Positions 3,989 through 43,682 are shown, counted from the stretch's first letter. The stretch is DNA of 47,627 nucleotides from a virus (IMGVR_UViG_3300029720_000461); one strand, 5' to 3'. Numbers and translations are program-made. Notes: a model not told the origin generated them from the letters alone.

Positions 3989-4447
3989 ATGAAGTTTACT
4001 ACATATTCAGAAGCACATTTAAAAAGTCTGAAAAAAGATAAATTAATAGATTTATATAGGCAGCTTGAAGATAATTTAAAATCGGAAATAGCAGAAAATG
4101 AAACGACAATGAATTATATAAGAGCTGCCAATATAAAAATAACTGAACAGCATAAGAAAGACATTATAAAGGCAAGAAAAGAAGCTGTAAAAGAGTTTGC
4201 TGATACATTAATTTATAAGTTAGACCATTTAAAGTCTATAAAGGTTAATTTAGGATTTGATACTACAGCATTGACATTCAGAAAAGAAGTTTTGCTTGAT
4301 TTAATTTCAGTCACAAAAATAGAACAGTGTTCACAGGCTGATAAACTTAAAACTAATGCAGACAGAATATGCAGCTTATCAGATGAAGAACTGGGAAAAG
4401 GTAATGATAAAACATTGAATAGAAATACAGACAATTATGAAAGGTAG
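3989..4447 (+). CDS. Hypothetical protein with ER tail
   Basis: RBS; TNADRI..SDEEL motif; ends NRNTDNYER. Confidence 0.75.
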   Translation: MKFTTYSEAHLKSLKKDKLIDLYRQLEDNLKSEIAENETTMNYIRAANIKITEQHKKDIIKARKEAVKEFADTLIYKLDHLKSIKVNLGFDTTALTFRKEVLLDLISVTKIEQCSQADKLKTNADRICSLSDEELGKGNDKTLNRNTDNYER

Positions 4448-4455
4448 TGAAAATT

Positions 4456-4851
4456 ATGTTTGGAACGAGAGCAGCAGATAGTAGATTATTTATAGCAATA
4501 AGTATTGCTTTGACATTAGTTTTAATTATATTGTTTTGCATTTGGTTAATGAATATAGAAAATAATATTGCGGGAACAATTTGCCTTACATTGTGCATAA
4601 TTGCAATTGTATATGTAGCTACTATTAATATATATAGTAAAAAGCAGGGAACGGATAATATCAAAGAAGCTATTACTGATAATTATAGTAATGCTGAAAA
4701 CATTTTGGTTCAGTTTGACAGAAATACTAAAAATAATAAAGGCTACTTTACTTCTGACGATGGAAATTTCAGTTTTGAAGTAATCAATAATACACTGGTT
4801 ATAAAGGATGGAGAGACAATAGTTAAGTATATATCGGGAGATAGCTACTAA
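4456..4851 (+). CDS. 2-TM membrane protein, paralog C
   Basis: IKEAITDNYSNAE, GYF, NFSFEV align with 3101/3551. Confidence 0.75.
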   Translation: MFGTRAADSRLFIAISIALTLVLIILFCIWLMNIENNIAGTICLTLCIIAIVYVATINIYSKKQGTDNIKEAITDNYSNAENILVQFDRNTKNNKGYFTSDDGNFSFEVINNTLVIKDGETIVKYISGDSY

Positions 4852-4886
4852 CTGTCTATTAACATTTTAATGAAAGGAAAAGGCAT

Positions 4887-5072
4887 ATGAAGACAGATTT
4901 ATTAAATTATTATTCAGACGGAAAGGCTCATAGTAATGAAGATATGAGAAAGTATTTCAAAACTGCCCCTGACAGTGAAAAGTACCATCAGTTAAGAGCA
5001 GCACAGCAGATGTTAAAAAGAGAAAATAAGATAAGAAGAGTGTCTTATGGTGTATGGATATTAAATGCTTAA
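4887..5072 (+). CDS. Small protein, possibly winged-helix
   Basis: RBS; LKRENKIRRVSYGVW wing-like motif. Confidence 0.6.
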   Translation: MKTDLLNYYSDGKAHSNEDMRKYFKTAPDSEKYHQLRAAQQMLKRENKIRRVSYGVWILNA

Positions 5073-5085
5073 GAAGGAGATTTTT

Positions 5086-5358
5086 ATGAAATGTCAATTT
5101 TGTAATGTAGAAATGGTATATAAACCTAATATGAGAGGAATTTTAGATTGTTCATATTTAGAGGCATCTGATTTTAACACTTTGATGGTTGATTATACAG
5201 AAGAAGTAGAAGAAGATTTTTTGTTTTTTAAAATAAAAAGAAAAAAAGCTGACAGACTTATAATAAAACCTATGTATTATGTGTGTCCTAAATGTGGACA
5301 GATTATAACAAAGATACCGGATGAAATGATAGATGATGTAATTAAAGCGGAGAAATAA
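5086..5358 (+). CDS. Zinc-ribbon protein
   Basis: CQFC...CPKCG; AGGAG RBS before ATG 5086. Confidence 0.75.
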   Translation: MKCQFCNVEMVYKPNMRGILDCSYLEASDFNTLMVDYTEEVEEDFLFFKIKRKKADRLIIKPMYYVCPKCGQIITKIPDEMIDDVIKAEK

Positions 5359-5361
5359 ACT

Positions 5362-5652
5362 ATGAATAAAAGACAATGGAAGAAATCAAGAAAGAAAATA
5401 AATAAGGTCTGTATATTAGATGAGTTCTTTTTATTAGATTATACACCTGAAGAGTATCAAAACTACCTTGAAGATATTGAAGAATACTCCTATAGGCATC
5501 ATAGATATAAGCATTATAAAGATAAGATATCAAGAGTAATAGACTTTAGCTATCGTCCGCCTGTAAGTAAAAGATATAGTGTACAAGAAAGTATGATTAA
5601 AGATATAAGAGCATATATCCAACAATGCTTAAACAGAAAGGTAGAAGTGTAA
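5362..5652 (+). CDS. Hypothetical protein
   Basis: GGAG RBS; operon packing. Confidence 0.7.
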   Translation: MNKRQWKKSRKKINKVCILDEFFLLDYTPEEYQNYLEDIEEYSYRHHRYKHYKDKISRVIDFSYRPPVSKRYSVQESMIKDIRAYIQQCLNRKVEV

Positions 5653-5704
5653 AAAGAAAAGAACGTCCTTTCGGAACAAAGTGTAGAAAGAAAGGTAATA
5701 CATA

Positions 5705-6136
5705 ATGAACAGTAAAGAATATACAAAATGTAAGAAATGCGGTTGTTTACTTGCTGAAAGAAACTTTAAAAAGGGATTATGTGATGAATGTCAGGAAGAT
5801 AGGAAGAACATCAGGAATACTATAGCTATGGTATTTATTGGAATTGCTTTAATTATAAGTATGGCTGTTATCTGGTTCCATATAAACAAGAAATATCCTG
5901 TTACTTATGAAGATTGTGTTATGCAGGTAGTTGATAAAAGAGAAGAAACAACTTATCGGTATTCAGGAAAAGCAATTGTTCCTATTACAAAATATTATCT
6001 TCTTTTTGATGACGGGAAAGAATTTCGTGTATCTAAGTATATATACAATAAAACTGATATAGATGATGGCATAATCGTTACTTATACATATCGAAATAAT
6101 AACATTGAAGATATGCAGATAAAATTTCAAAATTAA
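5705..6136 (+). CDS. Zinc-finger plus TM protein
   Basis: CKKC..CDEC followed by a TM helix. Confidence 0.75.
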   Translation: MNSKEYTKCKKCGCLLAERNFKKGLCDECQEDRKNIRNTIAMVFIGIALIISMAVIWFHINKKYPVTYEDCVMQVVDKREETTYRYSGKAIVPITKYYLLFDDGKEFRVSKYIYNKTDIDDGIIVTYTYRNNNIEDMQIKFQN

Positions 6137-7027: not shown

Positions 7028-8002
7028 ATGAATAACAATAAACCTTTTTACTTAGAAAACAGAAGTACTGTACATAAGCTTACATTTGGATTACCCGGTT
7101 CAGGAATATCTTCCGTTATGGAAAAAGAAATTACAACTATTGCCAACAATACCAAGGATGATAATATTGTTGTTATTGATATTGATGGCGGACAATTTAT
7201 AGAAACTGTTAAGAAGCTAGGGGGAGTAATTATTACTGCAAAAGAAATCTTTGCATGTTTTGATGAAATTGTATTTGGGTCTTTGCAGGAATCAGATAAT
7301 CAAAATTATTGTGAAGTACCTGATATCATAACTGCTATCTTAGAAGATTTAGGACATGGTTATATTACTCCTCATCAGCAAAGTGCTTTGTATGAGGCAT
7401 TGGATGAAATGAAAAAGAACACTGAATCAAATACAATCAATAATTTTATTCAGCGTTTACAGAAACTAGATAATGAAACGGCATCAGTCTTAGAAGTGCT
7501 TAAGAAACTTCCAATTTATGAAAATAGCTATAATGCCATGAATAAATTGAATAATAATTTTGTTTGCTTTGACCTTGGAGATTGCCGACAAGAATTAAAA
7601 AATATTGCATATTTACTGGCATTAAAAATGGCTAAGGACAAAATATGGAAAAATGGGGATAAAGGTATATATACTTGCTTATTTACTAAAATAAGCCGTG
7701 CTTCTTTAACAGAAGGAATCTGTAATTATCTGTCATATTTATATAAGCGTACAAGACAGCATTGGGGGCTAACTTCTTTTTACGCTATTAGTTTTTCGGC
7801 ATTTTTAAATGAACAAACATTGAGTTTATTAAGAAATACAAACGAATTTATTTTCTTAAAGCAAAACGCCTGTGATATTAATAAAGTTTCATTGTATTTT
7901 GATATACCGGATGAATACTTGCAGTTTCTTAGACATGCAAGTGCCGGACATGGTGTTTGGACAGATGGAATACAGTATGATTATGTAGATTACAATAAAT
8001 AG
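7028..8002 (+). CDS. Degenerate VirB4/TrsE-like ATPase domain
   Basis: GLPGSGIS (Walker A without Lys), VVIDIDG, YKRTRQHWG, NTNEFIFLKQ, AGHG resemble the Gram-positive VirB4 C-terminal domain. Confidence 0.7.
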   Translation: MNNNKPFYLENRSTVHKLTFGLPGSGISSVMEKEITTIANNTKDDNIVVIDIDGGQFIETVKKLGGVIITAKEIFACFDEIVFGSLQESDNQNYCEVPDIITAILEDLGHGYITPHQQSALYEALDEMKKNTESNTINNFIQRLQKLDNETASVLEVLKKLPIYENSYNAMNKLNNNFVCFDLGDCRQELKNIAYLLALKMAKDKIWKNGDKGIYTCLFTKISRASLTEGICNYLSYLYKRTRQHWGLTSFYAISFSAFLNEQTLSLLRNTNEFIFLKQNACDINKVSLYFDIPDEYLQFLRHASAGHGVWTDGIQYDYVDYNK

Positions 8003-11545: not shown

Positions 11546-12172
11546 ATGATTGTTAATATAGATGATTATAGTATAGCTGAACTAATTGAAATGAAATTCG
11601 GACTTAAAAAAGGTCAGGAATTTAAACTTATAGCAGACCCGATTCTTCATAAATATTATGCTGTTAAAGCTGATGAAGACGACATAACATACTGCTTTAA
11701 AGATGGTCAGCTTTTACATAAAAATGAAGTTGATTACGACCATTGGTCAGAATGGTATGGCTTTAATGAAAAGCAGCTTGAGTTAATCGTAAGTGGTATA
11801 TATACTCCCGTATCAATTGATAAGTGGAATGAAATACAAGAAAGTAAAAAAAGACAATTTGAATTAGATGAACAGTATAAGAGAAATGCAGTTAAAAAAT
11901 ATCTTAAAGACTATGCAGATAATAAAGGCTGGAAACATATAAAAATTTTAGATGAAAAAGATGGCTTTGATGACTTTTATTTGCTGATAGCTTATACAGA
12001 TGAAACTATGACTGCTGAAATAAAAGACCCTGATAACGGTATGATGATGTTTTTTAATGAAGATGATTATAAGGATTATAAAGAAATGTCTAATGCAAAA
12101 CTTTATTCAGATGTATGTAGTAAGGACAAAAAGATTTCAAAAGCTCCTGTGCATGACGAAATTGAAAAATAG
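11546..12172 (+). CDS. Hypothetical protein with tail
   Basis: RBS; ends KKISKAPVHDEIEK. Confidence 0.8.
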   Translation: MIVNIDDYSIAELIEMKFGLKKGQEFKLIADPILHKYYAVKADEDDITYCFKDGQLLHKNEVDYDHWSEWYGFNEKQLELIVSGIYTPVSIDKWNEIQESKKRQFELDEQYKRNAVKKYLKDYADNKGWKHIKILDEKDGFDDFYLLIAYTDETMTAEIKDPDNGMMMFFNEDDYKDYKEMSNAKLYSDVCSKDKKISKAPVHDEIEK

Positions 12173-12638: not shown

Positions 12639-13601
12639 ATGAACGAATTGAAACTTAAAATAGGAGATAAAGTACTTATAACTAATGGACTTCCAACAGA
12701 AGATAAAATTGGAACTGTAACAAAAATTACTCCAACCGGAAGAACAAAGTTAGATATATATACAGATTATCAATTTGATAGATATGGCAGACAGATGGGA
12801 AACAGGGATATTTGGAGTAGAAGTAAAAGTATAAGAATCCCTGATAAAGAAGATTATAACAGAGTTCATAAAAATGAAATTGTAGGACATATTTATTCAA
12901 AAATTAACCAACTTAATATTCAGAATTTATATGATACTAATATCAGCACACTTGAAATTTTAGATGATTGTCTGGGTTTAATAGGAGAAAGTAAAGAGCC
13001 TGAATATATAAAATCAAATGCAGATGATTCAAAGGTAATGATTATGGAATATAGTAATAAAGAATTAAACGAAATCAGAGAAGCAGGATATAATCACGGA
13101 TATGATGTCGGATATAATGAAGGCATAGAAAGTATTGAATCAGAAGTAAGTAAATTATTAAAAGAAAGTACAGAAAAATCCAATATGGCTGTAGCTGGAT
13201 ACGCTGACTGGTATGCAGGAGAAATGAACGCATATGAGAAAGTATTCAACTTTATTGAAAAATTAAAAGAAAAGGTTTTAGAATCCTCTAAAAGAATCAT
13301 AGGTTATGATGACTGTGGAAAGCCATTACATGAAGGAGATTTCTGCACATTTGATGTAAATGCAGCAGATTGGAGATTTAAACCAGATAATATACGAAAA
13401 TCCGGATTAGCTACTTTAGAAGGACAAGTTACATATAACGAACAGGATAAGTGTTATGAGTTAAGTATTGATAATGATTATTGTCCTGCCTTATACTTCC
13501 ATGCAATAGAACCGGGAACATTAAGCGTAAAAGAATCTAAGGAACAGATAAAATATAAACCGAATGTAAAATCTAAGAAGAGCATTGAAAGAGATATGTA
13601 A
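12639..13601 (+). CDS. Mosaic (fused) hypothetical protein with tail
   Basis: Internal RBS+ATG at 13033-13046; ends KSKKSIERDM. Confidence 0.8.
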   Translation: MNELKLKIGDKVLITNGLPTEDKIGTVTKITPTGRTKLDIYTDYQFDRYGRQMGNRDIWSRSKSIRIPDKEDYNRVHKNEIVGHIYSKINQLNIQNLYDTNISTLEILDDCLGLIGESKEPEYIKSNADDSKVMIMEYSNKELNEIREAGYNHGYDVGYNEGIESIESEVSKLLKESTEKSNMAVAGYADWYAGEMNAYEKVFNFIEKLKEKVLESSKRIIGYDDCGKPLHEGDFCTFDVNAADWRFKPDNIRKSGLATLEGQVTYNEQDKCYELSIDNDYCPALYFHAIEPGTLSVKESKEQIKYKPNVKSKKSIERDM

Positions 13602-15458: not shown

Positions 15459-16280
15459 ATGGCGAATGTGAAGAATTTGAGCTTTCTGATAGGTTCATAT
15501 AAGGAAATGACAAAGGCTTTTGGCTTTAATGATAAAACAGACCAATTTTTTATAAAACAGATGAATGCATTGTCAGGTATAGCCCAGATTGACTATAAAG
15601 ACGTGCAAATGATACAGCAGATTACCGGTATCGGAACTGAAAAAACAAAAAGTGAAAGAACAAAAAGCATTGATAGCTTTGTACATGCAATGAATATAAT
15701 GGAAGGTTCAATTATAAACTTAAGACCTACAATGCTTTTTAACATGTATCATAATAAGGAAGTAAATGAAGATTTATATAAGATTATAGGAAAGATATAT
15801 GGCATTAATACAAGTATTAGTTTAGACGAATTAGAAGAAAAAGAAGCTAATAATGCCTTTGGAGTACTTCAGGGTTCTGAAATAAGCAATGAAAATGATA
15901 CAGACTTAGATAAGTTTATTAACTTCTGCAATAAAATGTATAAAAAGTTTGGTATTAATGCAGGAATCAGATATAAAAACCCAAATTGTATATGTTCATC
16001 AAACCCTTATTATATATCATGTTCTTTTAAAAGACTTAATAAAGACATGCCGGCTATTATGCACAGGTTTTTAAATTCCATGTATGAAGCGGGCGAAGTG
16101 GAAGAAGTTTATGTTGATTATAGTGATGGCTGTCATGGCGGCACAAGAACCGATTTAGCAGCCACTAAAGAACTAGGAAACTTAAATATAGATTATAAAA
16201 AGGCATGTGATGAGTTAAGAAAAGAAATTGCAAAAGAAACCAATAAAAATAAATCAGTAAATGAAGAATATGAAAGATAG
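15459..16280 (+). CDS. Hypothetical protein with ER tail
   Basis: GAGG RBS; ends KNKSVNEEYER. Confidence 0.8.
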   Translation: MANVKNLSFLIGSYKEMTKAFGFNDKTDQFFIKQMNALSGIAQIDYKDVQMIQQITGIGTEKTKSERTKSIDSFVHAMNIMEGSIINLRPTMLFNMYHNKEVNEDLYKIIGKIYGINTSISLDELEEKEANNAFGVLQGSEISNENDTDLDKFINFCNKMYKKFGINAGIRYKNPNCICSSNPYYISCSFKRLNKDMPAIMHRFLNSMYEAGEVEEVYVDYSDGCHGGTRTDLAATKELGNLNIDYKKACDELRKEIAKETNKNKSVNEEYER

Positions 16281-16485: not shown

Positions 16486-17388
16486 ATGGATATGAAATAT
16501 ACAATAACAATTCCAAAGGAATTTAGATATGATTATATAAGAGATAAGTTTAAAGATACATTTGAAAGATTACTGGCGGATATAGAAGGTAAGGTTGATG
16601 ATACAACATTAAAAAAAGTAAATCAGCTTGAACAGGCATTTTTAACATCTGAAGCTATTACTAATGCTAAAGTAACTGTTTTTCTGCCATTTGAGGATAA
16701 GCCTGAAGATATTTTAAAAGCAGCTTCAAGTAAATTAACAACAATCTATCCTTATCTATGTGGCAGATATGAAAGAGAAACTATTGATATGTTAAACACA
16801 GCATTTAAAGATGCCGGTATTAATATTAAGGAGAAAACTATGGAGATAAATATGACTGGATTAGAACGAATAAAAGAAGAAAGTAAAAAGAATGAAAATT
16901 TAAAGCAGCAGGAAGAAGAACTGCGAAACAACAATGAAGGATATGGATATAAAAGAACCGCCTTTGAAAACATTAAGAAGTATTTTGATACATTAAATGA
17001 AGTATTAAAAGACACTGATATAGGTGATTTCAATATTCCTTTAGAAGATGAGATAAAATATAAGCATTATAAGAAAAATGTCCGTACATTAGGTGGAACT
17101 GGATATAAGACTGAATATCAGAATGAATTTGGCTATCAAAGAGCTATTATAAGCTTTAATAAGACATATGGAAAAAATGATGAAGGTAATCCTAACCTGT
17201 TTATAAACAATGGGCTTTTTTCAAAAATAGCATTAAATTGGGATAAAATCCAGAAAATAATTGAAGAAGACATTACAGAGCGACTTCAGAATAGAAATGA
17301 AGAATTAGAAGCATATAAAAAACTTTCTAATACATCTAATACAAATAAAAAGAATAAAGCTAAAGATAATTATGAAATAGGATTTTAA
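16486..17388 (+). CDS. Fused hypothetical protein; C-terminal half paralogous to 17409
   Basis: Internal AAGGAG RBS and ATG 16840; MTGLERIKEE; ends KNKAKDNYEIGF. Confidence 0.8.
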   Translation: MDMKYTITIPKEFRYDYIRDKFKDTFERLLADIEGKVDDTTLKKVNQLEQAFLTSEAITNAKVTVFLPFEDKPEDILKAASSKLTTIYPYLCGRYERETIDMLNTAFKDAGINIKEKTMEINMTGLERIKEESKKNENLKQQEEELRNNNEGYGYKRTAFENIKKYFDTLNEVLKDTDIGDFNIPLEDEIKYKHYKKNVRTLGGTGYKTEYQNEFGYQRAIISFNKTYGKNDEGNPNLFINNGLFSKIALNWDKIQKIIEEDITERLQNRNEELEAYKKLSNTSNTNKKNKAKDNYEIGF

Positions 17389-17408: not shown

Positions 17409-17969
17409 ATGATTATAGATATGACCGGATTAGAACGAATAAGAGAAGAGACCTGTAAAAGTGACCTTTTACAACAACAGGAAGAAGAATTATATAACAA
17501 TACTAAAGCTGAATATAAAAAGTATCAGAAAAGTGCTTATGACAGCATAAAGGCATATTTTGATACATTAAAAACCATATTAGATAATTCTGATTCTGAT
17601 TATTTAAAATATAATAAGATAACATTCGATATAAAAATAAAAGAATTTCATATGATATATAGTTATTCAAAAAATAGTATGCAGGATTTATCCTATTATA
17701 ACGGCAATTGTGGATTAACTTTTCGGGATTCATATGAAACAGTAGAAAGAAATCATCCTGAATATTTTGAAGATTTAGGCTTTTTTACCAGAATAGCGGA
17801 AAAATGGAATTATATACAGGCTTCCTTAGAACAGGAGATTATTACTCGTATAAGTCTTCAGAATGACTTAAAGCAGGATGAAATAAACAGATATAAGGAA
17901 AATATAGAGAACTATAAAAAGCTTTCTAATGAAGGAAATACAAGAAAGACAGCAGAATATGAAAGATAA
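17409..17969 (+). CDS. Coiled-coil hypothetical protein with ER tail
   Basis: MTGLERIREE; ends RKTAEYER. Confidence 0.8.
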   Translation: MIIDMTGLERIREETCKSDLLQQQEEELYNNTKAEYKKYQKSAYDSIKAYFDTLKTILDNSDSDYLKYNKITFDIKIKEFHMIYSYSKNSMQDLSYYNGNCGLTFRDSYETVERNHPEYFEDLGFFTRIAEKWNYIQASLEQEIITRISLQNDLKQDEINRYKENIENYKKLSNEGNTRKTAEYER

Positions 17970-18023: not shown

Positions 18024-18296
18024 ATGAGTAGCAGTTTAAGAGATACAGTAGAAAAATTAAATTATATCTGGAAACATATTAATGAATTTTTATACGAAAA
18101 TGGAAAACCGACATTAAGACATGGTAAGCCGGGAGTACTTATTGAACATACAGAGCAGGAATACATTGATTTTTTAAATGAATTAGCTCAGGATTCTTTA
18201 GAAAGCTATCGTGATTTTGCAATTGAATACGGCTGGATAGATGCCCCTATTTCTAAATCAAAATCAAATGATGATTATGATGATTATGGAAGGTAA
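18024..18296 (+). CDS. Hypothetical protein with tail
   Basis: AGGAG RBS; ends KSKSNDDYDDYGR. Confidence 0.75.
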   Translation: MSSSLRDTVEKLNYIWKHINEFLYENGKPTLRHGKPGVLIEHTEQEYIDFLNELAQDSLESYRDFAIEYGWIDAPISKSKSNDDYDDYGR

Positions 18297-18303
18297 TGAA
18301 CTG

Positions 18304-19830
18304 ATGAGATTAAATGAAGTATTAAAAGACACGGATATAGGAGATATAAATTACGATTTAGCAGTACAGCTTGCTAAGAAAGTAAATGAAATTGGCGGAG
18401 CTGCTTATTTTGTAGGTGGGTATGTAAGAGATAAACTACTAGGTATTCCAAATAGAGATATTGATATTGAAATACATAATGTAACACCCTATATATTAGA
18501 AAATATATTAAAAGAACTGGGAGAAGTCCAATCAAGAACCGTAGGGAATAATTTCGGGATATATAACATAGATGGTTATGATTTGGATATATCTTTGCCT
18601 AGAAAAGAGAAAGCCACCGGAAAAGGTCATAAGGATTTTGAAATAGTAGTAGACCCTTTTCTTTCCTTAGAAGAATCAGCAAAAAGAAGAGACTTTACTA
18701 TAAATGCTTTAATGGAAGATATACTCACAGGGGAAATTAAGGATTATTTTGGCGGACTGGATGATTTACATAATGGTGTCATAAGACATATAGATGATAA
18801 AACATTTATAGAAGACTCGCTAAGAGTATTAAGAGCCTGTCAGTTTGCAGCAAGGTTTAATTTCACAATTGCTCCTGAAACAATTTGTCTTTGTAAGACT
18901 ATGGATTTAAGTACCCTGCCTAAAGAACGAATTGCCGGGGAGCTTAGTAAGGCACTTTTAAAGACAGATAAACCTTCAGTATTCTTTGATAATCTTTATG
19001 AATGTAAACAGACAGAATGGTTTAAGGAAGTATATGCTCTTAAAGGTATCAAGCAGAATAGTATGTATCATCCTGAAGGAGATGTGTATATGCATACCAT
19101 GTCTGTATTAGACCAGGCTGAAGAGCTTTTCCCTACAGGTATAGACAATCCGGACAGGTATTTACCATTTATGTTATCAGCCTTATGTCACGATTTTGGC
19201 AAGGTAAATACAACTGAAATAAACAGTAAAGGAAGATTATGTGCATTAAATCATGAAATAACAGGTATTCCGATTGCAAATGATTTTCTTAACCGGATTT
19301 ATAACAATAAGAGCTTTATCAAGTATGTTGATAATATGGTTGAATATCATATGAAAGCACATAGCTGTTTTAATAATCGTTCAAGAACAAGAACCACAAA
19401 TCTAATGTTTGATAAGCTGTTATATCCAAAAGATTTTATTTTGTTAGTGTATGCAGATAGCACAGGGCATGATTTAAACAATCTTGATAATAAACAGTTT
19501 AATATGTTTTTAGAAAAAGCGATGATGGAAATTGGGTTCTTAACAGACCGATATCTTGATTATAGCAAGAAAATATCAGAGCCACATATCATGGCTGAGG
19601 ATTTAATTGATATTGGACTTAAGCCATCACCACTGTTTAAAATTATACTTGATAAGGCTTGGGATATGCACCTTAAAGGAGTAAAGAAGGAAAATGTATT
19701 AAAGCAGATTGCAGGTGAACTTGACGGAGAAGATAAAATGCAGCTTTGCAAAGCTATTAAACAATCTGATTTGCAGACAAAGCATCTGGCAGCAACAAAA
19801 AATAAAAATATTTATAATAAAGAACTATAA
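18304..19830 (+). CDS. cca: tRNA nucleotidyltransferase (CCA-adding class II) with HD domain
   Basis: VGGYVRD..DIDIE, RRDFTINAL, EDSLRVLR..QFAARF, HPEGDV..H, HDFGK; start moved to ATG 18304 on RBS evidence. Confidence 0.9.
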   Translation: MRLNEVLKDTDIGDINYDLAVQLAKKVNEIGGAAYFVGGYVRDKLLGIPNRDIDIEIHNVTPYILENILKELGEVQSRTVGNNFGIYNIDGYDLDISLPRKEKATGKGHKDFEIVVDPFLSLEESAKRRDFTINALMEDILTGEIKDYFGGLDDLHNGVIRHIDDKTFIEDSLRVLRACQFAARFNFTIAPETICLCKTMDLSTLPKERIAGELSKALLKTDKPSVFFDNLYECKQTEWFKEVYALKGIKQNSMYHPEGDVYMHTMSVLDQAEELFPTGIDNPDRYLPFMLSALCHDFGKVNTTEINSKGRLCALNHEITGIPIANDFLNRIYNNKSFIKYVDNMVEYHMKAHSCFNNRSRTRTTNLMFDKLLYPKDFILLVYADSTGHDLNNLDNKQFNMFLEKAMMEIGFLTDRYLDYSKKISEPHIMAEDLIDIGLKPSPLFKIILDKAWDMHLKGVKKENVLKQIAGELDGEDKMQLCKAIKQSDLQTKHLAATKNKNIYNKEL

Positions 19831-25854: not shown

Positions 25855-26013
25855 ATGATAGATAAGGAAAGAGTATTAAATGCATTAAATGATTTTAGAG
25901 ATGAGTATGGCACATCATTTTCATCTTGTTATACGGAAGAAACGAGCATTATTGAAGATGCCCTTGATATGTATTATGAAAAGCTTAAGGAAGATAATTA
26001 TTTAGAGAGGTAA
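25855..26013 (+). CDS. Small hypothetical protein (52 aa, not in ORF track)
   Basis: GAGG RBS; ends EKLKEDNYLER. Confidence 0.6.
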   Translation: MIDKERVLNALNDFRDEYGTSFSSCYTEETSIIEDALDMYYEKLKEDNYLER

Positions 26014-27779: not shown

Positions 27780-28220
27780 ATGAAAGAAATGAGTATTGAT
27801 AGAATTATAGAAAAGGAAACTAAGTATTTTAAAGAGGAACAGCATAAATATGACTGTTACATGGATTTATCAGATGAAGGAAAAAGAACATGGAGTGAAG
27901 GCAAACAGGCTAAATATGAAGCTGAATATCACAGACAGATTATTGAAAAACTAAATAAACTTGCAGAATATGAAAGGTTATATGAAGGATTAATGTCTGA
28001 TAAAAATAAACTCCTAGTCGAAGCTGAACTTTCTGATAGTCAGGTAGAAGCATTAAATAATAAAAATATAGATATTTCTGAACCTTTTGCGACTAATGTA
28101 ACACTTGATTATGGAGATAAAGTAATATATTGTGCCGGTAAAGTACAGTCTTTTTATAAAGCTGAAAAAAATCAGGAGAAAAAGAAACCTGAAAGAAATC
28201 AGGAATACGAACGAGAGTAA
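27780..28220 (+). CDS. Hypothetical protein with ER tail
   Basis: RBS; ends KKKPERNQEYERE. Confidence 0.78.
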   Translation: MKEMSIDRIIEKETKYFKEEQHKYDCYMDLSDEGKRTWSEGKQAKYEAEYHRQIIEKLNKLAEYERLYEGLMSDKNKLLVEAELSDSQVEALNNKNIDISEPFATNVTLDYGDKVIYCAGKVQSFYKAEKNQEKKKPERNQEYERE

Positions 28221-30886: not shown

Positions 30887-31414
30887 ATGAAGAATACAGA
30901 TAGTAGATTTTTATATAAGGCAAAGAGAACAGTCAACAATGAATGGGTACAAGGCTATATTTTTAAAACTGGAGAACGCTATAAAATTCTTCCGACAGAT
31001 TTTATTAGTCCTGCATTATCTGTACAGGAAGATACAATATGCCAGTGTACAGGTATGGAAGATAATAATTATAAGCTGATTTTTACAAATGATATTGTTG
31101 AGTTTCAGCATAGAAAGAATGATAAGAACCCTGACAGATACCTTTTGTGGTGGAATAAGGAAATGAGTGCTATGACAGCAATTGATGCAAATAAGTGTGT
31201 ATATAATGGATATGATTATACAGGCTTAGATGTATATAGTTCCATTCCTCTTATGGTACAAGACCCTTATGGAGATTTTTATGATATCAAAGTAATTGGA
31301 AATATTATCGACAATCCGGAGCTTGTTAAGGTTAAAGAAGATTATTCAAAGTCTTTCTTAACAAAAGATGCGAATAGAAAAACAGATAAGAATGACATTG
31401 ATTTAGAGTTTTAA
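30887..31414 (+). CDS. YopX family protein with tail
   Basis: TICQCTGMED..IFTNDIV..VIGNIIDNPEL; ends KTDKNDIDLEF. Confidence 0.88.
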   Translation: MKNTDSRFLYKAKRTVNNEWVQGYIFKTGERYKILPTDFISPALSVQEDTICQCTGMEDNNYKLIFTNDIVEFQHRKNDKNPDRYLLWWNKEMSAMTAIDANKCVYNGYDYTGLDVYSSIPLMVQDPYGDFYDIKVIGNIIDNPELVKVKEDYSKSFLTKDANRKTDKNDIDLEF

Positions 31415-34298: not shown

Positions 34299-34313
34299 GA
34301 TGAGGTGACAATT

Positions 34314-34685
34314 ATGGATAAATGGATGTATGAAAGAATAACAAAAGAAAACAGTGAAAAGTCTACAGAAGAACTTACACAAGAAATTTTAGCACTTGAA
34401 GAAATCGAATGTAATGACAGATGCTTTGCTAATCAGTGCGAAGCAGGTAATGCTATAGCAAATATTAATAAATTATTTGAAGCACTAAATACTATGGAAA
34501 ACGTACCTAATTCTGTTCGTTTAATAATAGAAAATGCAGAAATCAGTTGGGAATATATTACTTCTGGAATTGCTGAAATGAATAATGATTCAAGACGTGA
34601 AGTTGCATTAAAAGATTTTAAAGAGAGAGTTTATTATGGAAGCTTATATAACCATTGCCGCAACATATCAAACTTAGAACGATAA
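34314..34685 (+). CDS. Hypothetical protein with ER end
   Basis: GAGG RBS; ends RNISNLER. Confidence 0.75.
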   Translation: MDKWMYERITKENSEKSTEELTQEILALEEIECNDRCFANQCEAGNAIANINKLFEALNTMENVPNSVRLIIENAEISWEYITSGIAEMNNDSRREVALKDFKERVYYGSLYNHCRNISNLER

Positions 34686-36606: not shown

Positions 36607-36789
36607 ATGAATACTTGGAAAGATAAAATAGAAGAAATTATAGCTAATGGTGGAACTGATTCAGATATAGAAGAATATTTATATAAACATCCAAACTTTA
36701 ATGTAGATGAAGTATGGGCTTATATAGAACAAAAGAACAATAAGAAAGATGATAACTTAAAGAAAGCTATGAACTATTATGAAAGGTAA
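36607..36789 (+). CDS. Small hypothetical protein with ER tail
   Basis: Ends KKAMNYYER. Confidence 0.68.
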   Translation: MNTWKDKIEEIIANGGTDSDIEEYLYKHPNFNVDEVWAYIEQKNNKKDDNLKKAMNYYER

Positions 36790-37505: not shown

Positions 37506-38045
37506 ATGAAGTCAAAAGAGATGTGCGATTATCTTATATCTACAGATTTATATAAGGAAAAAGGAATAGCCATTTCATGTGTAAAGGATATGATTGAATT
37601 TAATAAAACAATCCCTATAAAAGATTTGGTTGAAAGATTTATTGAAGTTGATAAGTTCTACAAAGGAAAACCGTGGAATATCAGGAATATATTAACTAAT
37701 ATCAGCATGATTAAACCAATAGAAGATAGAAAAGAAAAATGGGAATCTAAAGACAATGAACAGATTATTGAAAAATTGAAAAAATTACCAAATATAGGGG
37801 ATACAGTATATGGTATATTCAGACAGAAAATTATACCTTTAACAATTACCGGTATTACATTTAATGAATTTGGTATTACATTATCTGCTAAAAATGAAGA
37901 AGAACTTGGATACAGTACAATAAATTTACTAGCAGATAATACCGGTACAGAATGGTATAAAACTAGAAAAGAAGCAGAAAAGAGTGTTAAAGAAATTTCA
38001 GCAAGCCGTTTATTAAATAAAAATGGCAATGACTTAGAACGCTAA
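37506..38045 (+). CDS. Mosaic phage-type protein with ER tail
   Basis: N-half like 37118, C-half like 39549; ends NKNGNDLER. Confidence 0.8.
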   Translation: MKSKEMCDYLISTDLYKEKGIAISCVKDMIEFNKTIPIKDLVERFIEVDKFYKGKPWNIRNILTNISMIKPIEDRKEKWESKDNEQIIEKLKKLPNIGDTVYGIFRQKIIPLTITGITFNEFGITLSAKNEEELGYSTINLLADNTGTEWYKTRKEAEKSVKEISASRLLNKNGNDLER

Positions 38046-38058
38046 AAGGAGATAGATT

Positions 38059-38580
38059 ATGGAAAGATTAACAGGAAGAGATGCATATGGAGACATTGTA
38101 GCAAATGAAGAGATGCAGATAATAGCATCAAAAGGTGCTACAAATGATGACTTACATAATATTATAAATCATCTGGCAGAAAAGTTGTGTGAATATGAGG
38201 ATTTAGAAGAGCAGGGCAGAATGATTATTTTCCCATGTAACAAAGGAGATAAAATCTATGAATTTTATCACGAATGTGTAGAATGCAGATTAGAAGCCGG
38301 AGAGACACCGGAAGATATTATCAGCATGAGGAGAGTTCGTTATTTTGGGTATGATGGAGATGAAGCATACATTTACGCGTCACAAGCATTACCGGTTCGA
38401 CTTTTTAATAACGATGAGCCATTTTGTATTCCGGTAAGTGAGATAGGCAAAACAGTATTCCTCACAAAATTAGAAGCAGAAATAAGACTAAAAGAATTGA
38501 GAAATATGGAAAATAAAGAAGCAGAAGCAGCAATGAACAAATTAAAAGGTAAATATAATAAGGATATAGAAAGGGATTAG
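38059..38580 (+). CDS. YEDLEEQG family protein with tail
   Basis: EYEDLEEQGR..IGKTVFLT; ends KGKYNKDIERD. Confidence 0.82.
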   Translation: MERLTGRDAYGDIVANEEMQIIASKGATNDDLHNIINHLAEKLCEYEDLEEQGRMIIFPCNKGDKIYEFYHECVECRLEAGETPEDIISMRRVRYFGYDGDEAYIYASQALPVRLFNNDEPFCIPVSEIGKTVFLTKLEAEIRLKELRNMENKEAEAAMNKLKGKYNKDIERD

Positions 38581-38586
38581 AATATT

Positions 38587-39054
38587 ATGAATACTAATTT
38601 ACATTTTAAAAATTTTTCAGATTTTAAAACAGATGATATTGTATATGCCTGTGCATATGAATACGCAAGTAATAAAGACAATAAAATAAATTATCAGAAG
38701 CTTATTTTAGGGAAATTAACATTAGGAAACTCTCAGAAAAAAGATGAAGAAAGAAGAACAAGTGATATTACTTATCACCCATTTTTAAGCTCCGAAGAAA
38801 CTAAAGAAATACCTTCTTATTTTGTTCCATTTGGAAAGAACGGTACATTAGTCTGGTCTAAAGCCGTTACCGTTTATTCAAGACATTTCTCTTATACAGA
38901 AAAAGAAGCTATAAATTTTTTTAATGCTTCTATTCAGGAAAAAATCAATTGGCATCTTGAAGAAATAGAAAAATTAAAAGAAAATTTAATAAAGGAACAC
39001 GGACAGTCAGAAAAAGAGAAAAACATAAACAAATATGAATGTGAGAGACAGTAA
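38587..39054 (+). CDS. Hypothetical protein with tail
   Basis: Ends KNINKYECERQ. Confidence 0.78.
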   Translation: MNTNLHFKNFSDFKTDDIVYACAYEYASNKDNKINYQKLILGKLTLGNSQKKDEERRTSDITYHPFLSSEETKEIPSYFVPFGKNGTLVWSKAVTVYSRHFSYTEKEAINFFNASIQEKINWHLEEIEKLKENLIKEHGQSEKEKNINKYECERQ

Positions 39055-39105: not shown

Positions 39106-39543
39106 ATGAATAGAGAGAAAATAAGGGAGAGATTAACGATTAATGCGATAATTGAGCATTGCGACAGAAAAACAAGGATGTACGAAAAAGCCTGTGATGT
39201 TAAGTATCTTGAAACAGCAGTTATGGGTAATGGAATAAAAGAATATTGGGAGCATAAACAGGTTGCTGAATATTTAAGAAAGCTAAAAGATTATGAGGAC
39301 TTAGAGGAACAGGGCAGACTTCTAAAATTGCCTTGTAAAATCGGAGATGATGTTTATTACATCTTAGGTATTCCAAATGAAACACCATGTACAATAGATA
39401 AGTGTACATTTAAGTTGTCAGATATAAACAAAATTGGCAAAACATTATTTCTTACAAGAGAAGAAGCTGAAGCAAAACTAAAAGAATTGAGAGGCATCAA
39501 CTCTGAAACTAACAGAAACGAAATTGAAGAAATAGAAAGGTAA
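39106..39543 (+). CDS. YEDLEEQG family protein with ER tail
   Basis: YEDLEEQGRLLKLPCKIGD; ends RNEIEEIER. Confidence 0.82.
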   Translation: MNREKIRERLTINAIIEHCDRKTRMYEKACDVKYLETAVMGNGIKEYWEHKQVAEYLRKLKDYEDLEEQGRLLKLPCKIGDDVYYILGIPNETPCTIDKCTFKLSDINKIGKTLFLTREEAEAKLKELRGINSETNRNEIEEIER

Positions 39544-39548
39544 TATAT

Positions 39549-39989
39549 ATGGATAGATTAACAAAAAGAGGACATAAGAAACTAGCTCTTTTAATTGGAA
39601 CATCATGCAGTTATGGTCATATGTCGTATGATTGCCAACTGGAAGAGGGAAATGAGCTACTTAAATCAGCCTTGGATAAACTTGCTATGTATGAAGACTT
39701 AGAGGAACAGGACAGGCTTCTTAAGCTACCTTGCAGATTAGGAGATACTGTATATATTTTAAATCAAAAAAGAATTATTTCTTTAGAAATTTGTGAAATT
39801 TACTTTGACAGTCATGGAATTGAAATGGCTGCTAAAAACAGAGAAGAACTTGGATATAGAACAATAAATTTAACAGAAGATGGTATTGGCGTGGAATGGT
39901 ATAAAACTGAAGAAGAAGCTAAAGCAGCAATGGACAAATTAAAAGGTAAAGATAATAAGGATATAGAAAGAGATATAGAAAGGGATTAA
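39549..39989 (+). CDS. YEDLEEQG family protein with duplicated tail
   Basis: Ends KGKDNKDIERDIERD. Confidence 0.82.
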   Translation: MDRLTKRGHKKLALLIGTSCSYGHMSYDCQLEEGNELLKSALDKLAMYEDLEEQDRLLKLPCRLGDTVYILNQKRIISLEICEIYFDSHGIEMAAKNREELGYRTINLTEDGIGVEWYKTEEEAKAAMDKLKGKDNKDIERDIERD

Positions 39990-40854: not shown

Positions 40855-40876
40855 AAAAATAAAGGAGAAAATTATT

Positions 40877-41557
40877 ATGAATAGAAATGGGATTAGCAGT
40901 TTAGGAGACAATGGAATATGTATACCATTAAGCACTTCATCATATGATTTTTCAGAATCCGAAAGATATGATGAACAATATAATGAAAGACAGGAGAAAC
41001 AGCCTATGGATAATACATACACATATAGAGCAAAAAGAAAAGACTGGCAGGAATGGGTTAAAAGCTGTCAGTATGTAACAGGAAATATGGTTACTCTGGG
41101 AGACAGATATTTCTTGGTAACACCGGCGTATGGGGGAGATGAACTTTATATTGATGATTTTACAGAGATTGATAAAGATACAATCGAACCGGTAATTAAA
41201 CCTGTTATTGATAAGAAGAAAGAAGTATTAACAAAAGAAGAAATATTAATAAAGGTTCATTCAGAGCTTACAAACCTTTCGGATTCTACAACTGATAAAG
41301 AACTTGCAGCCCTTTGTGATGCCTGTAATTATGATTATGATACATTATCTGAATGGAATAAAGAGTGTAAACTACAAGCTCGTGGCAGTATTATAAGTAG
41401 TAATTTTGTAAGGGCATTAGCTGAAAGCTACTATAATGATAATGCACTGATTGATTATGCTAAAAAGTATAAAGAGTTTATGAATGAACCACCTGTAAAG
41501 ACAAATAATATTAAATCAAAGATTTCTGATAGAGCAATTTCTGACAGAGAACTTTAA
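40877..41557 (+). CDS. Mosaic protein with YopX-like segment and tail
   Basis: YRAKRKD..EIDKDTI; ends KSKISDRAISDREL. Confidence 0.78.
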   Translation: MNRNGISSLGDNGICIPLSTSSYDFSESERYDEQYNERQEKQPMDNTYTYRAKRKDWQEWVKSCQYVTGNMVTLGDRYFLVTPAYGGDELYIDDFTEIDKDTIEPVIKPVIDKKKEVLTKEEILIKVHSELTNLSDSTTDKELAALCDACNYDYDTLSEWNKECKLQARGSIISSNFVRALAESYYNDNALIDYAKKYKEFMNEPPVKTNNIKSKISDRAISDREL

Positions 41558-41562
41558 ATTTT

Positions 41563-41605
41563 GAGACTGGTACTTAAATGTGATACGTTTTTGTACCAGT
41601 TTTTT
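41563..41605 (+). terminator. Intrinsic terminator
   Basis: ACTGGTAC...GTACCAGT plus T run. Confidence 0.7.
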
Positions 41606-41612
41606 ATAATTA

Positions 41613-41652
41613 GTCCTTTTTACAATGTTTTTCACCATAAAATGATTATAAT
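41613..41652 (+). promoter_or_regulatory. Long-spacer element promoter, copy 10
   Basis: GTCCTTTTTACA-N22-TATAAT. Confidence 0.65.
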
Positions 41653-41820
41653 TAAGTCAAGAAATAAAAGAAGGAGAATTATATAGTTGATGAAGTCTTA
41701 TATAAGCAAAAGCTTCAAAAAAACTGTCCTGAGTAATTAGTCAAAGATGAGCAGTTACGAAGTAGATGTAAGAAGAGAATAAACAAGTAAGAATTATTGG
41801 TTTCCTTGGGAGGTAAAAAA

Positions 41821-42105
41821 ATGAGAATAGAAGAAATCGCTTTAAGACAAGAAGCAAGACAAATGTTATGTGAAGCTGGTTTAAGTAAAGAAGAACTTAA
41901 AGAACTGGTATTAAAAGATATAGATGATAAAGTAATTCAAGCGATAGAAAGCAAAATCAAGGGTATTGATTTTGAACAAATGATTAAGGATAGAGTCGAT
42001 AAAGCTTTAACCAAAGCAGTTAATGATATTGTCCGAAAAGAAGTAGAGGGATATTTTTATAACAGAAGGCTCAACATTCGTGCAACTGCTTCATTTGAAG
42101 AATAA
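41821..42105 (+). CDS. Helical hypothetical protein flanked by 20-bp direct repeats
   Basis: GGAGG RBS before ATG 41821. Confidence 0.75.
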   Translation: MRIEEIALRQEARQMLCEAGLSKEELKELVLKDIDDKVIQAIESKIKGIDFEQMIKDRVDKALTKAVNDIVRKEVEGYFYNRRLNIRATASFEE

Positions 42106-42145
42106 ACAAGTAAGAATTTTTGATTTTTTATAAGGAGAAAAATTT

Positions 42146-42883
42146 ATGAGCATTGAATTAAAGGATGCCAGACATGAACTGGATATTTTGGAAAAGTTTG
42201 TCAATAATCCTGAATTAATTATGTCTGATTTATCAGCATATGAAGTAAGCGATTATGATTTTTTATTTAGGAATATAACTGTTAATGGTAAAACATTTCA
42301 TGCAGCCATGATGGAATATTTAAAGCAGATTGAAATATTTAATAATGATGATATATTTTTAACACCTTATTCAGATGTTAATAATGTAACGGTTAAGATT
42401 TCTTCATTTGACGAATTTCACAGTCAAAATATTATGTGCATAGATTTTATAAATCATACTTACAAGATTATTGACGATTGCATCAAATATTATAATAAAA
42501 TAATGAATGATGAACCTGAGTATGAGCCAAATGAAATACAGGGTATTTTAAAAAGATACGAAAATTATACATTTAAAAAGAGACTTGCTAATGCACGACA
42601 TTGTTTATTTAATAAGGATAAGACATGCAGTGTCAGGATATCTGATTTCTTTTTCAGCTTATTTGTGTCTAATAAATATTTAAAAAAGATACTTGATAAG
42701 GAATATAAAAGAGTTGAGAGAATAAATAAAAGTCTAAAAAAGGGCTATGATGAAGACGTTGAAAAACAGAAGCTTTATATACAGAAAGCTCCTGAGCAGA
42801 TTAGGAAAATTGAGCAGAAACAAAAAGAGATTATTAAGTATCTTTCTAAATATGGTTTTAAAGAACAGTCTGACTTAAAATAA
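42146..42883 (+). CDS. Hypothetical protein
   Basis: AAGGAG RBS; 245 aa. Confidence 0.8.
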   Translation: MSIELKDARHELDILEKFVNNPELIMSDLSAYEVSDYDFLFRNITVNGKTFHAAMMEYLKQIEIFNNDDIFLTPYSDVNNVTVKISSFDEFHSQNIMCIDFINHTYKIIDDCIKYYNKIMNDEPEYEPNEIQGILKRYENYTFKKRLANARHCLFNKDKTCSVRISDFFFSLFVSNKYLKKILDKEYKRVERINKSLKKGYDEDVEKQKLYIQKAPEQIRKIEQKQKEIIKYLSKYGFKEQSDLK

Positions 42884-42925
42884 AATGGAAATAAAAATAT
42901 TCTAAATACCTAAATAAAGTAAGTA

Positions 42926-42954
42926 TTGCATGAGATGTTTTTAATATATATAAT
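42926..42954 (+). promoter_or_regulatory. Sigma-A-type promoter
   Basis: TTGCAT-N17-TATAAT. Confidence 0.65.
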
Positions 42955-42977
42955 GGAATTAGAAAGAAGTGATAAGT

Positions 42978-43682
42978 ATGGAAGATAAAATTTTATTTCA
43001 TGGCTCAAGAGGCGGTATTAATGGAAACATTCAGCCACTTAGCAGATTTACATGTGATTTTGGTAAAGGCTTTTACATGGGTACAAACATAATGCAGGCA
43101 AAAGGAATTGTATCTAATGACTTTGACCCTTATATATATACATTAAAATTTAATTTATCTGAAATTCCGGATAATAGGATTTTAGATTTACGAAATAATG
43201 ATATGTGGATATATACTATATTAGCAAACAGAAAAAAAGTAAAAGATTTCAATGAACTTCCACTTGCTAAAAATCTCTTGGATATGTGCAATGATTATGA
43301 TGTTATTATAGGTACAATTGCTGATGATAGTATGAGTAAAGTGATGGAATATTTTAGAAATAATCTTATTACTAACAAAACACTTGAAAAATGTATTAAA
43401 ACCGTTGATTTAGGTACACAGTATGTTGCTAAAACAGAATTTGCATGTAGTAAAATTGAAATACTTGATTGCAAAGAAATAACATATGATATGGCATCTG
43501 AAGCAAAAAGAGCTGAAGAAATCAAAAGATTAGGCAGTAAACAGATTATAGATAAAATGATTGTAGAGCATAGAAATGAAGGGCTTTTTTTAGATGAAAT
43601 TATAAAACGGGAAAAATCTCTTCAAAAAAATCCAGTTAAAAGTTTCCAAAATAACAGAAAGGAAAAACATTATGAAAGATGA
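42978..43682 (+). CDS. DUF3990 family protein
   Basis: LFHGS, R..DFGKGFY, QA, YDVIIGTIADD, LGTQY. Confidence 0.85.
   Translation: MEDKILFHGSRGGINGNIQPLSRFTCDFGKGFYMGTNIMQAKGIVSNDFDPYIYTLKFNLSEIPDNRILDLRNNDMWIYTILANRKKVKDFNELPLAKNLLDMCNDYDVIIGTIADDSMSKVMEYFRNNLITNKTLEKCIKTVDLGTQYVAKTEFACSKIEILDCKEITYDMASEAKRAEEIKRLGSKQIIDKMIVEHRNEGLFLDEIIKREKSLQKNPVKSFQNNRKEKHYER

Follow-up and report, generated by a model that had tools for sequence, protein, structure and literature searches.

A short C-terminal tail shared by many proteins of one element: a candidate coupling-protein export tag

Around one sixth of the proteins encoded in the window (the whole 47,627-nucleotide stretch analysed, 29.6% GC, part of a large mobile element of gut bacteria) end in a common short tail, which is very probably a selected C-terminal peptide signal. 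Judged from sequence, it is likely a short unstructured peptide signal consisting of a polar spacer and (D/E/N)-hydrophobic-Glu-Arg at the free C-terminus, and its most likely role, favored with moderate confidence, is that of a candidate export tag for a coupling protein. The preliminary description of this DNA, which proposed a charged tail exporting about 20 unrelated proteins as a possible anti-defence or establishment payload, is partly supported as a whole.

Features of the window

The only conjugation-like gene in the window encodes an untagged soluble protein resembling a VirB4 ATPase half, and neither a relaxase nor a coupling protein was found in the window. The closest whole relative, G001, is circular (244 kb, 30.9% GC) and has 59 of the 96 window genes in common. 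Features are given below (all on the + strand; percentiles refer to a profile ranked against 2576 control ends).

3989..4447, 152-aa protein, end NRNTDNYER; ER codons in RBS position
7028..8002, VirB4-ATPase-like soluble protein, untagged; matches VirB4 proteins at 22-26% identity (E 1e-9 to 2e-6) and a G001 gene at 95%
11546..12172, 208-aa protein, end HDEIEK; listed earlier as a variant, tag status unsupported
12639..13601, 320-aa composite protein, end KSKKSIERDM; RBS-independent, 98th percentile; G001 counterpart ends YGNDDIER
15459..16280, 273-aa protein, end KNKSVNEEYER; separate RBS after it; EEYER in 15/15 among the cluster members listed
16486..17388, 300-aa protein, variant tail KDNYEIGF; 97.9th percentile; G001 orthologue NDFDVELD
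17409..17969, 186-aa paralogue of 16486, end RKTAEYER; RBS-independent
18024..18296, 90-aa protein, variant tail DDYDDYGR; overlaps next RBS
18301..19830, CCA-adding enzyme-like protein (Pfam PF01743), added variant tail KNKNIYNKEL
23140..23499, 119-aa protein, end RDESEMER, Arg CGT; G001 orthologue (97%) RDESEMEL
24684..25133, phage-derived family member, variant tail PEDDWVMAR; 97.1st percentile
25370..25849, YopX-family protein (PF09643), tail KDSNDYER past the domain; RBS position
25855..26013, 52-aa protein, end KEDNYLER; RBS position
27250..27759, Panacea (SocA-like) antitoxin domain protein (PF13274), variant HDIEEIKR; G001 orthologue HDIEEIER
27780..28220, 146-aa protein, end RNQEYERE, Arg CGA; G001 homologue RNQEIELD
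30887..31414, second YopX-family protein, variant KNDIDLEF
34305..34685, 126-aa protein, end RNISNLER, Arg CGA; 95.9th percentile
36607..36789, 60-aa protein, end KAMNYYER; RBS position
37506..38045, 179-aa protein, end KNGNDLER, Arg CGC; separate RBS after it
38059..38580, phage-derived family member, end YNKDIERD; RBS position
38587..39054, 155-aa protein, end NKYECERQ; RBS-independent
39106..39543, phage-derived protein with added INSETNRNEIEEIER; RBS position
39549..39989, phage-derived family member, end KDIERDIERD (duplicated motif)
40877..41557, 226-aa protein, variant tail ISDREL; G001 orthologue EEIDEIDR
42969..43682, DUF3990 protein (PF13151), end RKEKHYER; YER codons overlap next start; [HN]YER in 15/15 among the cluster members listed
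45869..47627, Tn916-type excisionase and tyrosine integrase, running off the window end; no counterpart found in G001

Enrichment and composition of the tail

All 16 ER ends and all eight variants described earlier are real. Their bearers are unrelated only in part, since four of the 16 ER genes (37506, 38059, 39106 and 39549) are paralogous, which leaves 13 unrelated families, or about 18 with the variants. Hydrophobic-Glu-Arg ends occur in 15 of 93 automatically called window genes versus 3 of 1021 chromosomal genes and 4 of 536 and 6 of 1019 phage genes; the chromosomal controls have a higher GC content (34-54%) than the window, and 0 of 109 genes in their low-GC subset (<37%) are tagged. 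With curated genes the count is 16 of 95; when the last 25 residues of each gene were shuffled 20,000 times, the count averaged 0.47 and never exceeded 5. The motif is 81-fold more frequent at the free C-terminus than at internal positions. A profile trained on 40 G001 proteins without a window homologue placed 14 of the 16 ER tails and four of the eight variants above the 99th control percentile and five more between the 95th and the 99th; HDEIEK (12172) fell outside the top 30 of 96 in this ranking, and its listing as a tag is not upheld.

In all 16 ER tails a Y, L, I, M or C precedes ER. A hydrophobic residue three or four positions from the end, as described for T4SS signals in the portion of the source used here (PMC5536186), is present in the tails; in KSIERDM this residue stands fifth from the end. 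The mean identity in the tail alignment is 16%, the tails of unrelated genes have no extended DNA in common, and among the last 66 bases of the 24 tails the only mutual match is between the paralogues at 38580 and 39989. Order-promoting residues make up 0.18 of the tails versus 0.37-0.38, a composition that suggests disorder. The tail had been called Lys-rich and acidic; it is polar and near neutral rather than basic (K+R 3.8, D+E 3.5, net +0.3 over the last 15 residues, with single tails from -3 to +3). The claim that membrane proteins are without it holds as a count (0 of 14), which is significant when all 24 tails are considered (p=0.018) but not for the 16 (p=0.12).

Overlap with ribosome-binding sites

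The tails might have no function at all, if genes simply run on into AT- and purine-rich DNA between genes and end in the next RBS (GAA AGG stop) or start (T ATG AAA GA), so that YER is accidental. Six of the 16 tails do occupy the Shine-Dalgarno position, with AGG in all six (AGG in 7/16 versus a 16% background, p=0.008), the tail at 43682 overlaps the next gene's start codon, the DNA of the 4447 tail is kept as a non-coding RBS in G001, where the orthologue of 3989 (86%) ends sooner, and tails come and go. However, once RBS and start overlaps are removed, 9 of 95 window genes remain versus 6/1021, 7/536 and 8/1019 (p 5e-7 to 1e-4), so that the enrichment over chromosomal and phage ends holds; off-frame stops near gene ends give an ER tail in only 2 of 312 cases; phages that share these gene families and this RBS use are tagged in 6 of 1019 genes, with RGGENE as their end instead; the EL, EM and DL forms of G001 cannot be RBS; and the profile from unrelated G001 proteins detects 18 of 96 window genes where about one is expected. 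An absence of function is very unlikely and is largely refuted for the whole set, while it may apply to single genes.

The Arg codons of the 10 non-RBS tails are consistent with background use, and the codons other than AGA and AGG read earlier (CGT at 23499, CGA at 28220 and 34685, CGC at 38045) are correct. Orthologues replace ER by EL, ELD or DL, none of which is an RBS, which argues for a protein-level signal. The view that selection acts on the protein and not on the RBS alone is borne out by the overlap-free tails and weakened by the 7 of 16 that double as an RBS or start overlap.

Addition and loss of tails

The expectation that phage homologues lack the tail was confirmed in every set, with 0/50 tagged for 39106, 0/41, 0/39 for 38059, 0/26 for 25370 and 0/23 for 30887 (the sets overlap). 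For 39106 the DNA match to phage homologues stops at 39494-39495. As had been noted, the tails lie beyond the Pfam domain ends; PF09643 in 25370 stops at residue 142 of 159. Among the best 120 homologues of the CCA-adding enzyme, 40 are without the tail, which is also missing from the G001 orthologues of 3989 and 18301, from window gene 30029 and from the shorter paralogue of 37506 (37118-37384). Tails appear to be dispensable for some genes.

Relatives and their conjugation genes

G001, although filed in a virus collection, is a conjugative plasmid (Rep3, ParA, MOBV relaxase, VirD4, VirB4 and PrgI) with a complete T4SS. An acidic form of the tail (an acidic run, then hydrophobic-acidic-hydrophobic; D+E 5.5 of 15, net -3.8, Asp and Glu equally common) is found on 52 of its 326 proteins, and Arg-free forms on 29 of 326 versus 2 of 1021 chromosomal proteins. 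The tag is present on 50 of 257 soluble versus 2 of 69 membrane proteins (p=3e-4) and on none of the 18 T4SS-core proteins; its bearers include UvrD, RecJ, RtcB, SNase, DarA_C and NT5C proteins. That the tail directs proteins into phage particles or to type VII secretion, to which the filing of G001 as a virus and the phage derivation of several tagged genes might point, is extremely improbable, as G001 gave no match to PF03237, PF03354 or PF01580 (two terminase families and FtsK/EssC) and true phages are without the tag.

Bacterial SSB tails are acidic-hydrophobic, and the G001 form resembles them. The tail could bring many proteins together at a single hub in the cytoplasm (replisome, partition filament or relaxosome) without export, and many tagged G001 proteins do act on DNA. 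On the other hand, the Rep, ParA, sigma factor and methylase of G001 are untagged, and tiny phage-derived proteins of unrelated families gain the tail, which a replisome hub does not explain; such docking is unlikely.

Small ICEs carry a further form. The 20 stretches analysed around coupling-protein genes of Clostridial ICEs hold 391 genes, of which 31 have an ER end versus 15 of 1021 chromosomal genes, with a tail form of net +1.9, and they include primases, ArdC-N, YodL, DUF3801, helicases, ParB and one MOBQ relaxase. The relaxase, the one certain substrate, does not end alike, with the motif in 1 of 39 close relaxase homologues and in 1 of 7 ICE-stretch relaxases; the profile shows a weaker resemblance, placing 5 of 39 above the 99th control percentile and 20 of 39 above the 95th (the relaxase of G001 is at 96.8). 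This poor fit is softened by the internal signals that several relaxases use, according to the part of the source available (PMC10025392).

These data also bear on the possibility that a soluble ATPase encoded by the plasmid reads the signal within the donor, for instance as a degron, with an anchor-less VirD4 paralogue unfolding tagged proteins and feeding them to ClpP, or that the acidic end shields them from host proteases. G001 has three anchor-less VirD4 paralogues, and its ClpP (PF00574, E 9e-53; 63303-63905) lies directly upstream of one such VirD4-like gene (63947-65227); the relaxase fits the motif poorly, and this reading would likewise leave membrane proteins untagged. Against this, ER tails cluster beside the coupling-protein genes of small ICEs, no ClpP was found among the 66 ICE-stretch proteins scanned, and the Clp degrons known at C-termini are for the most part non-polar. 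It is a conjecture that an ATPase of the T4CP fold would work with ClpP, and reading in the donor seems fairly unlikely. In a third relative, G157 (a 95-kb fragment), strict tags number 0 of 130 and broad ones 6 of 130; neither a coupling protein nor a T4SS is present in this fragment.

Comparison with known systems

The likenesses below are to those portions of the cited papers that were available. The tfs3 ICE of H. pylori comes close, in that its unrelated proteins CtkA, PZ39 and Fic have acquired a common, disordered C-terminal tail, missing from homologues elsewhere and needed for T4SS-dependent activity (PMC5536186). However, that case concerns three proteins with one homologous 27-residue block ending in KRRR, in a Gram-negative organism and aimed at host cells (PMC5536186), whereas here tens of proteins carry a four-residue motif, neutral to acidic, on unrelated DNA. 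A single homologous block of about 27 residues was sought among the 24 tails, of which only 38580 and 39989 match. Legionella Dot/Icm likewise places an acidic C-terminal E-block on very many unrelated substrates, read at the coupling complex by DotM, but is an effector translocator for eukaryotes with a separate adaptor (PMC5802825, PMC10025392); the present case would concern Gram-positive conjugation with a fixed terminal hydrophobic-Glu-Arg/Leu, and the window tails are not Glu-rich. The Agrobacterium VirB/VirD4 signal is also short, unstructured and C-terminal, with a terminal Arg, and is thought to be read by VirD4, but it is defined by net positive charge (PMC10025392). The earlier analogy to such a basic signal fails for the window (+0.3) and G001 (-3.8), the ICE form (+1.9) being closer.

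The F plasmid moves many proteins besides the relaxase, aiding establishment, but without a common motif, its signals being varied and partly internal (PMC11288057, PMC8406263). Polyvalent proteins of Firmicute conjugative elements are similar cargo (primases, ArdC-N, YodL and LPD domains) proposed to travel with DNA; no C-terminal export motif is named in the part of that paper drawn on (PMC5512222), and the proteins here are mostly small and single-domain, each tagged. Hodor elements are large conjugative plasmids of gut Bacillota with Rep_3, ParA, VirD4 and VirB4, misfiled as phages; they differ in GC (44.6-47.1%), a MOBH-like HD relaxase and sortases, and the single 'C-terminal' passage in the available text concerns cell-wall sorting (PMC12934698). 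With 30.9% GC and a MOBV relaxase in G001 and 29.6% GC in the window, neither belongs with Hodor. The ArdC of R388 is required in the recipient and not in the donor, according to the available portion of that work, and this recipient role counts against the export reading (PMC7213743).

Proposed mechanism

We infer a T4SS on the window's own element. The element would add the tail to proteins it acquires, its coupling protein VirD4 would likely read it, and the tagged proteins would then pass by way of the conjugation channel into the recipient, where they may help establishment. Little is probably needed for a new tail to arise: a gene that extends into the purine-rich DNA between genes meets GAAAGG-stop, which already spells ER, and selection would then keep and tune the result. 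The untagged phage homologues and the avoidance of the tail by T4SS-core and membrane proteins of G001 speak for export; frequent tail loss, the lack of strict tags in G157 and the poor relaxase fit speak against it. None of the tagged window proteins could be assigned an anti-defence function, which leaves that part of the payload proposal unsupported.

A bolder and decidedly tentative extension is that conjugative megaplasmids of one Gram-positive family deliver between a sixth and a quarter of their proteome (50+ proteins) into recipients by a four-residue C-terminal code. Captured phage genes would become effectors by run-on into the next RBS, and tails would be rewritten in each element's dialect after gene exchange (basic in ICEs, neutral in the window, acidic in G001) and possibly sorted by several coupling-protein paralogues, amounting to a Legionella-scale arsenal in a conjugation system.

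Concluding remarks

Substrate choice by Gram-positive conjugation machines is poorly known, and the experimental evidence on protein recruitment by them is called limited in a passage of PMC12857230. Since the motif is short and can be read from genomes, the question could be addressed with one reporter fusion. The tail picks out candidates for injection, 18 to 24 proteins in the window and 52 or more in G001, that could be screened for anti-defence or establishment activity, and it could serve as a tag to deliver proteins into gut Clostridia. It may also represent an inexpensive way for captured genes to be turned into cargo.

C-Terminal Tails in the Window

The window (GC 29.6%) carries about 96 mostly small genes, all on one strand, in a run that closes with a Tn916-type excisionase and integrase, and the sole hint at its host is the name Lachnospira attached to a homologue of its CCA-adding enzyme-like gene (CCA, 18301..19830) at 79% identity. 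The 16 proteins ending in Glu-Arg (ER ends), the 8 variants and the CGN arginine codons listed in the preliminary description were all confirmed in place. The same simple gene caller was used for the window and all control sets, with hydrophobic-Glu-Arg plus at most one further residue as the rule; such ends were found in 15/93 window genes vs 3/1021 chromosomal genes (60 stretches, 1.12 Mb, 18 genomes from the family of Eubacterium sp. UBA3720, GC 34–54%), 4/536 genes of 34 virus loci and 6/1019 genes of 80 gut-phage loci picked for a gene family common with the window. When the last 25 residues of each gene were shuffled 20,000 times, ER ends numbered 0.47 on average and never more than 5, compared to 16/95 observed; the p-values for the window are optimistic because the motif rules were drawn up after it had been seen. 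A less circular test relied on a profile built from 40 tagged proteins of a relative, none with a window homologue: 18/96 window ends exceeded the 99th percentile of 2576 control ends, corresponding to 14 of the 16 ER ends and four variants, and the variant HDEIEK did not qualify as a tag.

It had also been claimed that selection acts on the protein and that overlap with ribosome-binding sites alone does not explain the tails. This stands for the nine tails independent of a ribosome-binding site or start codon, which are still enriched (9/95 vs 6/1021, 7/536 and 8/1019 in the controls), and arginine codons in the ten tails outside ribosome-binding sites follow background rates. It does not extend with the same force to seven others, which could be accidental or serve both purposes. 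Six of the 16 ER hexamers sit 5–12 bases upstream of the following gene's start, where there is no further Shine-Dalgarno site, and all six use AGG for the arginine; the seventh tail, ending at 43682, overlaps the next start codon. Off-frame stops showed the motif in 2/312 cases. The tail is very probably a selected C-terminal peptide signal and can be compared with the SSB tail and the Clp degron.

Relatives of the Window Element

A search with a window protein led to G001, a circular record of 244,052 bases with homologues of 59/96 window genes, most at 80–99% identity. Its genes include Rep3, ParA, a MOBV relaxase, VirD4, VirB4, PrgI, two T2SSE ATPases and an amidase (domain scan of 137/326 proteins, plus 50 more), and two terminase families and FtsK found no match in it; therefore, G001 is a conjugative plasmid and not a phage. 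Membership in Hodor was rejected on comparison with the Hodor megaplasmids, as far as these are described in the accessible part of the source (PMC12934698). Both G001 and G157, a 95-kb fragment of a second relative, are filed as viruses, and in both of them DNA polymerase III alpha is in two pieces (G001 124619–129144, G157 44816–54729), the C-terminal piece bearing a tag in G001. Because the window's integrase was not found in G001, the two backbones differ and it is from G001 that we infer a putative T4SS for the window element.

PLSDB contained no relative of the window element and no close match to the G001 family (best VirB4 37%), and in GTDB the CCA enzyme had 5 distant counterparts at 45–50% identity. 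A family-wide VirD4 search returned 0/151 at E 1e-60 and 35/121 at E 1e-20, the latter only ordinary ICE coupling proteins. Metagenome contigs of up to 668 kb carry VirD4 genes related to that of G001, and proteins of the window element are encoded on contigs of 450–850 kb. VirD4 proteins of this family have acidic-hydrophobic ends such as DDEDSIYA, NDDDF, DDEDFM and EDDFTTF (loci L017:577-3003, L066, L067, L069, L072 and L073); in another locus (L068:8867-11779) unrelated sequence stands in place of the N-terminal third of VirD4, which reflects either a fusion or a chimeric assembly.

A broader, acidic form of the tag (DIELD, EMEM, EIER) ends 52/326 G001 proteins vs 16/2576 controls; one of the 52, on a transposase, is probably due to chance, and under a stricter rule 29 tags lack arginine. 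Membrane and machine proteins are avoided, with tags on 50/257 soluble proteins, 2/69 membrane proteins and 0/18 T4SS-core proteins. The tags are not confined to a leading region but spread across G001, with a maximum density at 90–180 kb. This density is not universal, because the G157 fragment has 0/130 strict and 6/130 broad tags.

Gain, Loss and Variation of Tails

Among the best 120 homologues of the phage-derived protein at 39106..39543, 27 are tagged; the remaining 93 mostly have RGGENE-like ends 5–16 residues past the last helix, some at 84–91% identity, and two nearly identical ones are truncated. In three of five compared loci, similarity to the phage copies at the DNA level breaks off at 39494–39495. 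The tail is missing from phage homologues of tagged window proteins (0/50, 0/41, 0/39, 0/26 and 0/23 in overlapping sets); the best YopX homologue nevertheless ends in ENER. A single shared DNA cassette as the source was rejected, since tails of unrelated genes have no extended DNA in common. The comparisons indicate that the tail is appended and convergent.

Orthologues swap tails (EMER/EMEL, EIKR/EIER, EYERE/EIELD, ISDREL/EIDEIDR), 40 of the best 120 CCA homologues lack one, and the G001 copies of the CCA gene and of the gene at 3989 stop early, with tail-like DNA remaining downstream. The tails are element-specific: their last 15 residues carry a mean net charge of +0.3 in the window, -3.8 in G001 and +1.9 in ICEs, and the window tail is more basic in 10/11 untied homologue pairs (p=0.012), which were paired by hand and include three with bodies just 40–53% identical. 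Contigs aligned to window 36500–43700 revealed gene shuffling, with too few tail changes for a selection test.

Other Features of the Window

Intergenic gaps ahead of gene blocks (229, 2965, 11067–11080, 13645, 19829, 29029 and 44253) contain a recurring palindrome of the AAAAAGNCTTTTT type, which has no clean copy in G001 and may serve the window's lineage as an operator or promoter. A soluble protein (7028–8002) is similar to VirB4 in the ATPase half alone, and its Walker A is degenerate (GLPGSGIS); its G001 counterpart is 95% conserved and distant from the T4SS genes. A 320-aa protein (12217–13601 region) is a fusion whose N-terminus matches a separate 142-aa gene in G001 and G157, whose central part is a repeat of the small 12217 gene and whose C-terminal half matches a different G001 gene. 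Two radical SAM genes (13720–15408) are 97–99% identical to G001, unusual conservation relative to their neighbours, and an IS605-family TnpB gene without transposase (9221–10471) is absent from G001. The DUF3990 protein (42969–44175 region) matches the PADLOC candidate systems PDC-M13, M42 and M10; its gene overlaps that of a 167-aa partner, only the DUF3990 protein is tagged, and the two look like a toxin-antitoxin or defence pair.

ICE Coupling-Protein Loci and Relaxases

In 20 stretches of 20 kb, each centred on a coupling-protein gene of the control family, ER, followed by no more than one residue, ends 31/391 genes vs 15/1021 in the controls, and 6/20 stretches have no ER end. The 34 tagged ICE proteins scanned include 4 Toprim/DUF3991 primases, 4 DUF3846/YodL, 6 DUF3801 and 2 ArdC-N proteins, 3 helicases, 1 ParB and 1 MOBQ relaxase; six relaxases occur among 32 untagged ICE proteins picked from 144, with the ends NDKFR, YEYRR, QEVR, LGGL, GMSR and RDVR. 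A matching end on the relaxase, a check proposed in the preliminary description, found little support: the G001 relaxase ends in QEDKEMDI (96.8th percentile of control scores in the tail profile), and of the 39 homologues closest to it only 1 has the motif, while 5 score above the 99th and 20 above the 95th percentile. Relaxase tails are variable, charged and loosely tag-like, and this misfit is the main result against the export model of the preliminary description. It is less damaging because several relaxases use internal signals, according to the accessible part of PMC10025392.

Possible Role of the Tag

The coupling protein seems, on balance, the likeliest reader of the tag: it would bind the tail, and tagged proteins would be co-transferred into the recipient, presumably to the benefit of the element. 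The best rival explanation is a reader internal to the cell that serves no export, to which three anchor-less VirD4 paralogues in G001 point, one of them directly downstream of a clpP gene.

Anchor-less VirD4 paralogues in G001
63303–65227 (L010:3303-5227): clpP gene, then anchor-less VirD4-like ATPase, then actin-like ParM gene
136361: second anchor-less VirD4 paralogue
224500: third anchor-less VirD4 paralogue

As for the cargo of such a coupling-protein route, the suggested anti-defence role is unsupported so far, the tagged window proteins being YopX, Panacea, CCA, DUF3990 or function-unassigned. The ESM Atlas gave no match for the protein at 15459 and the PDB none for that at 42969, PHROGs matches were limited to families of unknown function, and PADLOC on the window returned only candidate PDC models (DUF3990) and two weak matches. 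Among the datasets listed as containing the window, the sole RNA candidate is one run guessed to be RNA (share 0.06).

A search of mostly open-access full texts yielded no description of the motif, nor of any export tag common to several proteins in Gram-positive conjugation. The closest precedent for a shared tag, in the accessible part of its source, is the tail of H. pylori tfs3 (PMC5536186); PMC11482881, in the part available, has no bearing on protein transfer. The window's contribution lies in the scale, in tags on phage genes of recent capture, and in dialects that vary among gene-sharing elements.
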